Positions 32,835 through 33,727 of a stretch of 64,000 bases of DNA are shown in pieces (position 1 is the first letter of the stretch; each line of letters opens with the position of its first letter). Origin of the DNA: Anolis carolinensis (Eukaryota); contig NC_085844.1 of assembly GCF_035594765.1 (NCBI RefSeq), positions 193,828,107 through 193,892,106 of the forward strand. Reading direction: 5' to 3'. The notes under the pieces are model-generated. The model saw only the letters and a list, made by a program, of their open reading frames with translations, did no database searches and was not told the DNA's origin. The position numbers were made by a program, and so were the translations under genes.

Positions 32835-33727
32835 TGTGATGTCTCAGGTACCTTTGGCCCCTGATCCAGCAGCCATTGCGGGTCAAAATGAAGATTTGGG
32901 TTTTTTCCCACCGCAGCAAGATTCTATCCCTTTCCAGATGTCTCCTGTTGACATTGCAGAGCCAATTAGGAATGCCCTTGAAATGTTGCCAGCTCTTCCC
33001 GGATTGCCGGAGAGTTTAGAATTTGATAGAAGGGCTAATTTCCAAACAGATCACTCTCGAAAACAAAGTTTAAGGAGAAGTGTGAGATTAGCGGAGCAAG
33101 GAGATTGTGGCTAAGTCAGTTCTCCTGGGAAGTTTTGAGGAGGCAGGCATCTGGCATCTTGTTATTAGCAGCTCGTTCTCTTGGGAACTTTTGGGGAGAC
33201 ACGCACCTGCTTGGGGGAAGCTTTTGGACTTCAATAAATGTTCTGTGCAGAGAATCTTTGTTGCGGTGTCAACTGGACTTCTAACGGAAGAATACATCGT
33301 CTCTTGATCCTGTGTTTCTAAGCGGCCCGTTGGTGCGCTTACTCTCAAGTAGACCGGGCGTAGCGTCTCATCCCTTGCCAAGTTTGGACTGTGTTTCAGA
33401 TCCACCACGAATTGCCTTGCCTTGTCTTGCACCCTGTTCTGGACTATTATTTCAAGTACTTCCCTAAGGAACTTTGCTCTTTCCCCCACTCAAACTTCCA
33501 TTAGGTTTGAGTGTGTTTTGGTTATTGGATTTTGGACTTTGGACTCTAATATTGGACATATAACTTTCTTTCTCTGGACTATTACTGATCTTTTCTAAAA
33601 GGTCAACTGTTTGACTATCTACTCTGCTTATATTTGTTTGAAACTTTTATTGTTTTAATAAAGATATTAGATTGTATATTGGCCTCCGTGTTGGTTCCCA
33701 GTGTTCGCGCTGCCTAGGGGTGTTACA
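32835..33727 (+). mobile_element. Solo LTR (893 bp), probably Gypsy-type
   Basis: tgtgatg...gttaca ends, 5-bp TSD gaaat (32830-32834 and 33728-33732), AATAAA at 33657; related to 57124-57990. Confidence 0.88.

Follow-up and report, generated by a model that had tools for sequence, protein, structure and literature searches.

The stretch of Anolis carolinensis DNA analysed here, 64,000 nucleotides in all and referred to as the window, holds two plus-strand solo LTRs, each a single LTR between target-site duplications. On the minus strand it holds exons at 28075-28179 and 42926-48790, which we take from motif matches to be those of NUDT3 and RPS10. Copy 1 lies antisense to both genes, between the 3' end of RPS10 and the start of NUDT3, and copy 2 lies upstream of RPS10. 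The features of the two LTRs are as follows.

32830-32834 and 33728-33732: target duplication GAAAT, 5 bp, around copy 1
32835..33727, plus strand: solo LTR copy 1, subfamily A1, with TGT...ACA ends
32839..33114, plus strand: orphan U3 ORF of copy 1, pol/integrase C-terminal tail, 91 codons and stop
32884..32913, plus strand: acidic ExxGFxP block QNEDLGFFPP of copy 1, the most constrained part of the tail
33073..33093, plus strand: HMGN-like motif RRSVRLA of copy 1
33233: TATA-like AT-rich site of copy 1
33263..33272, plus strand: GCGGTGTCAA, complement of the primer-binding site in copy 1 and putative start of R
33657..33662, plus strand: polyadenylation signal AATAAA of copy 1
57119-57123 and 57991-57995: target duplication AGAAA, 5 bp, around copy 2
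57124..57990, plus strand: solo LTR copy 2, subfamily B1
57128..57382, plus strand: U3 ORF of copy 2, pol/integrase tail, 84 codons and stop
57176..57202, plus strand: acidic block EEENLGFPP of copy 2
57341..57361, plus strand: HMGN-like motif RRSARIA of copy 2
57486-57493: TATATAGA of copy 2
57516..57525, plus strand: GCGGAGTCAA, complement of the primer-binding site in copy 2 and putative start of R
57922..57927, plus strand: polyadenylation signal AATAAA of copy 2

An open frame in U3 of both LTRs

Both LTRs carry an ATG at base 5 (32839 in copy 1, 57128 in copy 2). A previous reading of this DNA without database searches (the sequence-only reading) had described the TGTG-ATG start, frames of 91 and 84 codons, shared acidic, proline-rich and basic blocks, and an ORF upstream of the putative TATA box. 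All of these observations were borne out, both blocks being present in the aligned homologous peptides. The self-priming complement, which marks the transcript start, lies at LTR base 429 in copy 1 and 393 in copy 2, about 30 bases past the TATA-like site; the ORF ends 130-150 bases upstream of this putative start and is thus placed inside U3. Its position makes expression from the promoter of a solo LTR unexpected.

The two peptides are 30% identical (pairwise E 2e-08), with net charges of +3 and +4 over the last 30 residues and of -6 and -9 over an acidic stretch of 55 residues. Within the motif, 7 base differences fall in 5 codons that specify identical residues. Of 20,000 nucleotide shuffles per ORF, 0.5% and 1.5% left the frame open, and 0.07% gave rise to an RRSxR[LI]. 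As the LTRs are homologous over their full length (460 identical of 948 columns) and hence not independent, the real test of the ORF is the selection analysis described below.

The element is a Tf1/sushi-type chromovirus

DNA searches of the lizard's own genome listed 40 scored copies per LTR, at 89-100% identity to copy 1 and 95-100% to copy 2. Four LTR pairs 5.3-8 kb apart were fetched as full-length elements (L061, L062, L063 and L064), and these carry gag followed by pol in the -1 frame. In the pol of L062, Pfam recognizes protease, RT, RNase H, integrase zinc finger and core, SH3 and chromodomain, the PR-RT-RH-IN order expected of a Ty3/Gypsy chromovirus. The chromodomain (PF00385, E 2.4e-08) stands at the integrase C-terminus and is of type I, with three aromatics, F/W/F, that align with what we take to be the cage aromatics of HP1-beta.

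The primer-binding site, which follows the 5' LTR, matches the LTR itself in place of a tRNA, with an 8-10 base complement in 5 of 5 5' LTRs. Site and complement change together from group A to group B (GACTCCGC/GCGGAGTC versus GACACCGC/GCGGTGTC in L062, L063, L128, L129 and at window positions 33263 and 57516), a compensating change that supports self-primed reverse transcription, which is described as a mark of the Tf1/sushi group (PMC6317226). With the vertebrate members of that group (V-clade: sushi-ichi, Amn), the element has in common Gag and a -1 pol, an integrase with a type I chromodomain, a 5-bp target duplication, the self-priming site and TGT..ACA ends. The closest named proteins are from Anolis carolinensis, and the nearest integrase matches are Tf2-like proteins of amphibians, fish and squamates. 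By these features we place the element as a Gypsy chromovirus of the Tf1/sushi type and not as a retrovirus.

The A-group element L128 comprises a 5' LTR, gag, a broken pol and nested elements, with no 3' LTR in the next 10 kb. A second Gypsy family is nested in an A-group element; its integrase ends right after SH3 (L128:2627-6928, L130:5368-9282), and its copy in L128 is without chromodomain or tail. Two A1 matches 7 kb apart on C1, considered as an LTR pair, turned out to be a segmental duplicate.

Pol is read through into the 3' LTR

In each of the four two-LTR elements fetched, the pol frame crosses the polypurine tract, read there as EGGLEEGDS or similar, without a stop and enters the 3' LTR, whose first bases encode the V-M at the junction. 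The sequence-only reading had proposed exactly this examination of full-length elements. Three of the four end pol at RRSARIAARQLDD (RRSARIAA end), L061 being frameshifted inside the tail; in L062, L063 and L064, pol frames of 1237-1363 codons terminate in the tail peptide of copy 2. By hand count, 127 of the 150 matches listed for the youngest subfamily lie in frames of at least 1200 codons, and the C-termini of six Anolis carolinensis UniRef integrases are the same tail.

In the A group, the 3' LTRs L139 and L140 have the tail in frame with the chromodomain, both with stops elsewhere. In L131 a frameshift separates the chromodomain from the polypurine tract, so that this copy is itself no example of read-through. 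Among the 150 matches listed for A1, the subfamily of copy 1, none has an intact pol and the longest frame runs to 308 codons, and an initial pattern search for A1 3' junctions gave no match; for A1 we therefore infer read-through from the sister subfamilies A2 and A3. The frame within the LTR is accordingly no separate gene: it constitutes the last 84-96 residues of chromovirus pol/integrase, read through into the 3' LTR. Gene predictors splice the small ORF into false models (P0124, P0125, P0126).

Purifying selection on the tail

Our catalogue covers nine subfamilies, with 151 distinct LTR copies whose tails are 84-96 codons long; identical 3' junctions were merged, and B5 is therefore under-counted. 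A frame of at least 84 codons is kept in 135 of the 151 copies, and RRSxR[LI] in 125 of these 135. A codon model on 16 real copies across the nine subfamilies, ORF-intact and in part found by protein search, yields an omega of 0.28 (2 x delta lnL 125 versus omega 1), and the same columns in frames +1 and +2 yield 1.5 and 1.65. Pairwise omega is about 0.2-0.45 where the two subfamilies are closer; the distant comparisons, A with B, are saturated, with some omega values near 1 at kappa 3. In DNA-only alignments of 12 subfamily pairs, mismatches by codon position are 0.21/0.17/0.37 in the ORF, whereas downstream of it the same pairs show 0.19/0.20/0.21, with no third-position excess. One real copy of each of the nine subfamilies, picked for an intact frame, has 0 stops in this frame and 0-10 in the other five.

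Over 28 subfamily pairs, pN and pS are 0.17 and 0.64 in the acidic ExxGFxP block, 0.18 and 0.82 in the RRSxR(L/I)A motif, and 0.40 and 0.51 in the rest of the tail. Between B1 and B5, the motif has 5.9 synonymous and 0 non-synonymous differences, and constraint over the whole tail is no more than moderate, with an omega of 0.42 versus 0.06 in the integrase core. In full-length copies of the same two subfamilies, dS is higher in the LTR tail (0.83) than in the core (0.37), which suggests faster change of U3 or exchange of LTRs between lineages. Indel gaps number 6.2 in-frame versus 2.7 other in the ORF, and 17.6 versus 142.5 downstream; we give this comparison little weight, since it is partly circular, intact copies having been chosen.

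As a neutral control, we took 25 A1 copies collected by DNA search: their private variants number 27, 25 and 24 at the three codon positions, and the modal frame is kept in only 12 of the copies. It is thus in the replicating lineages that the tail has been under purifying selection at the protein level, whereas the solo copies decay neutrally. The sequence-only reading had postulated a selected coding segment in U3, which agrees with the omega of 0.28 and with a third-position excess confined to the ORF; neither stops as frequent as in other frames, nor a dN/dS near 1, nor conservation of synonymous sites was seen.

Relatives and lineage range

A profile of the tail, run against 1.84 billion proteins, gave 7 matches at E <= 0.001, namely four Anolis models and three unrelated proteins (wasp, alga, Hydra). 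Credible matches being limited to Anolis, the long tail looks lineage-specific within the database searched. RRSxR[LIV] follows the chromodomain in 1 of 103 non-Anolis relatives scanned, many of them chimeric gene models and nine others having been left out; the motif is thus not required by the clade at large. A chromodomain integrase of Leptobrachium (P0077) carries RRSRRL about 20 residues past the polypurine-tract region, possibly an independent case.

In fish Tf1/sushi relatives, too, a short tail apparently follows the polypurine tract (GG[ST]V); its placement in the LTR is deduced from protein sequence. Their tail has about 25 residues and ends in SP[ED][YF], a second, different terminal motif, in ten listed proteins (P0038, P0041, P0042, P0044, P0049, P0052, P0067, P0073, P0099 and P0101), whereas that of Anolis has 84-96 residues with the acidic block and the HMGN-like motif.

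The TND-interacting motif of LEDGF ligands is described as a helix, an acidic linker and FxGF (PMC9987994). The Anolis block does not have the canonical FxGF: it reads E[ND][LM]GF or EEFGF, and the first F is absent. After the chromodomain of P0016 and P0134 (Podarcis) and of P0100, we find helix-acidic-FxGF stretches that fit this motif (EIFEETDSEEEEFIGF; two in P0100) and could constitute an LEDGF-type tether in a Gypsy integrase; the Podarcis tails were assigned to the LTR from their protein sequences.

A short HMGN-like motif

RRSxR(L/I)A is the common state in all nine subfamilies, and all 13 aligned tails have R72, R73, S74 and R76, giving an RRSxR(L/I) core with three conserved arginines of the Dsup and Dot5 type. 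Lysine is in no subfamily the common residue at any site of the motif. The exception in L140, RRGASLA, represents decay of a single copy: of 25 loci surveyed in its subfamily, one of them unparsed, 19 of the 24 read have the motif in frame.

The core of HMGN proteins is RRSARLSA, and HMGN, tardigrade Dsup and yeast Dot5 have the core RRSxR(L/I)[AS/T] in common with the Anolis tail; RRSARIAT of Dot5 and RRSARIAA of copy 2 are one residue apart. Both Dot5 (PMC13347269) and Dsup, with RRSSRLTS (PMC12480509), are described as binding the nucleosomal acidic patch through the three arginines. We find no Pfam family on either tail peptide and no PDB match to the tail below E 0.19, and we reject membership of the HMGN family, which would entail its full nucleosome-binding domain. 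The likeness to HMGN, Dsup and Dot5 is limited to a short linear motif, probably reached by convergence.

Chromosome distribution of the subfamilies

Contigs outside C1-C6 make up 15.3% of the genome. By hand counts of the matches listed, which are top-scoring subsets and not a census, these contigs hold 59 of 150 A1, 14 of 40 A2 and 8 of 40 A3 matches in the A group, and in the B group 6 of 150 for the mostly solo subfamily, 6 of 150 for B1 full-length and 12 of 150 for B5 full-length (A1 versus the mostly solo B subfamily, Fisher p 1e-14). Either targeting or differential retention could be the cause. The G+C content of the flanks does not separate the subfamilies.

Discussion

What might an integrase gain from a tail encoded in U3? 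The reading that we favour, and hold to be somewhat more probable than all others combined, is that this pol tail in U3 of the 3' LTR, maintained by purifying selection, uses RRSxR(L/I)A to bind the acidic patch of H2A-H2B and so hold the integrase on nucleosomes. Genomic RNA would be translated into Gag and Gag-Pol, with pol ending inside U3, and after cleavage by the protease the tail would stay on the mature integrase, which would then carry SH3, chromodomain, a short linker, the acidic stretch and the basic end. As a disordered linker ending in an arginine anchor, the tail could form, together with the chromodomain, a two-point nucleosome reader, for acidic patch and methyl-lysine, that helps the integration complex to dock, and the acidic ExxGFxP block may bind a second partner. 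It is from the match to the HMGN core and from the binding by Dot5 and Dsup that we infer the two-point reader. Reverse transcription would copy U3 into both LTRs, so that every solo LTR would carry an orphan copy of the tail upstream of its own transcript start. Counting against the acidic patch as the target are the length of the motif, 7 residues only, and the fact that constraint peaks in the acidic block rather than in the basic motif; moreover, RRSxR repeats in plant CMT2 are described as having no assigned function (bioRxiv 2024.07.11.603080).

The main rival to acidic-patch docking, unlikely in our view but to be taken seriously, accepts the tail as a part of the integrase and holds that the motif serves nuclear import or general DNA binding or is a kinase site, and does not read the acidic patch. 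The positive net charge of the last 30 residues would suit this reading, and C-terminal nuclear import signals occur in retrotransposon integrases such as that of Ty1. A classical import signal, however, needs a lysine, and none is common in the motif in the nine subfamilies; moreover, the spacing R-R-S-x-R-hydrophobic-A is kept while neighbouring basic residues vary. In plant CMT2, the N-terminus that bears RRSxR is required for nuclear localisation, with separate import signals predicted there (bioRxiv 2024.07.11.603080).

It is a good deal less probable that the tail is mostly passive read-through, kept open, soluble and harmless, with a motif that has no specific partner. Such a tail would account for an omega several times that of the core, for a length varying from 84 to 96 codons and for the fish tails of only about 25 residues. 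Yet a passive tail would not be expected to have two discrete blocks in which pN is 0.17-0.18, compared with 0.40 elsewhere, while pS is high or saturated, nor to retain RRSxR over saturated synonymous divergence.

The sequence-only reading had left two options, an integrase C-terminal extension read into the 3' LTR, which is now shown directly, and a small accessory protein. The latter, made also or mainly from the base-5 ATG as a separate product, we consider very improbable. MMTV sag and HIV nef have coding sequence within U3 of the 3' LTR, but they are separate genes on their own mRNAs, whereas the Anolis frame is the end of pol, running on from it and lying upstream of the transcript start; a sag- or nef-like gene, with an ORF not continuous with pol, is thus rejected. 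A methionine at the ATG site is invariant in 13 of 13 tails, but the A of the ATG and its purine are fixed positions of the sushi LTR terminus, TGTYANR as given in Table 3 of PMC3601003. Fish relatives have Thr or Arg besides Met at this site. With the ATG accounted for by the LTR terminus and the frame continuous with pol, the accessory protein is left unsupported. Four sequencing runs of guessed type yielded contigs only, without a recurrent joint into the LTR start, a result that weighs neither for nor against such a product. That the shared blocks are cis-elements in U3 DNA, where enhancer elements normally reside, and the open frame incidental, has next to no probability, the synonymous sites of the motif being saturated and the most diverged of the tail, its arginine codons alternating between AGG/AGA and CGC/CGA/CGG, and the three-base periodicity being limited to the ORF.

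For the tail as an integrase part that would dock on nucleosomes, there are precedents of two kinds. Read-through into the 3' LTR is already known from plant chromoviruses (CR motif), the closest plant systems being the group A CRM centromeric retrotransposons and the Beta Bingo chromoviruses, with an integrase tail in the 3' LTR. The CR motif encoded by the CRM LTR takes the place of the chromodomain, whereas the Anolis tail sits behind an intact type I chromodomain. The chromatin-binding sequence of foamy virus Gag and LANA of KSHV resemble the Anolis tail in using a short arginine motif, with which they tether a mobile element to nucleosomes; there, the tether resides on Gag or on a latency protein and has other motifs, whereas in Anolis it would reside on the integrase beside a chromodomain. 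Loss of chromatin binding by PFV Gag is reported to redistribute integration sites (PMC9040877), and acidic-patch tethering through Gag to steer foamy virus integration (PMC9040877; PMC12125541). The cited review on acidic-patch tethering contains neither 'retrotransposon' nor 'HMGN'. Our literature search, with most subscription papers outside its scope, met with no retrotransposon integrase described as having an HMGN-like motif, nor, for Anolis Gypsy elements, with any account of this tail; the read-through may be described in the original papers on sushi and on chromodomain targeting, which were also outside its scope. The Anolis element combines a known architecture, an integrase tail in a chromovirus 3' LTR, with a payload that is new: behind its intact chromodomain it carries an HMGN-like motif.

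A more far-reaching scenario, which we put forward tentatively and think rather doubtful as a whole, is that the first 260-290 bases of the LTR became a docking arm of the integrase, with an HMGN-type anchor for the acidic patch and an acidic host-factor motif behind the methyl-lysine chromodomain. Lying in U3, the arm would change more rapidly than other parts of pol and, by diverging, would retarget the subfamilies, with A enriched and B depleted on small chromosomes. To our knowledge, the choice of insertion sites by vertebrate chromoviruses has been little studied beyond the chromodomain.

For the Anolis genome, the read-through tail explains why many solo LTRs contain a conserved-looking small ORF. 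An acidic-patch anchor on the integrase, if true, would mean that Gypsy elements, too, use the kind of tethering known from foamy virus Gag and LANA, and would represent one more independent origin of an HMGN-like motif. The significance of such an anchor would rise if binding and the chromosome bias of the subfamilies prove to be linked.
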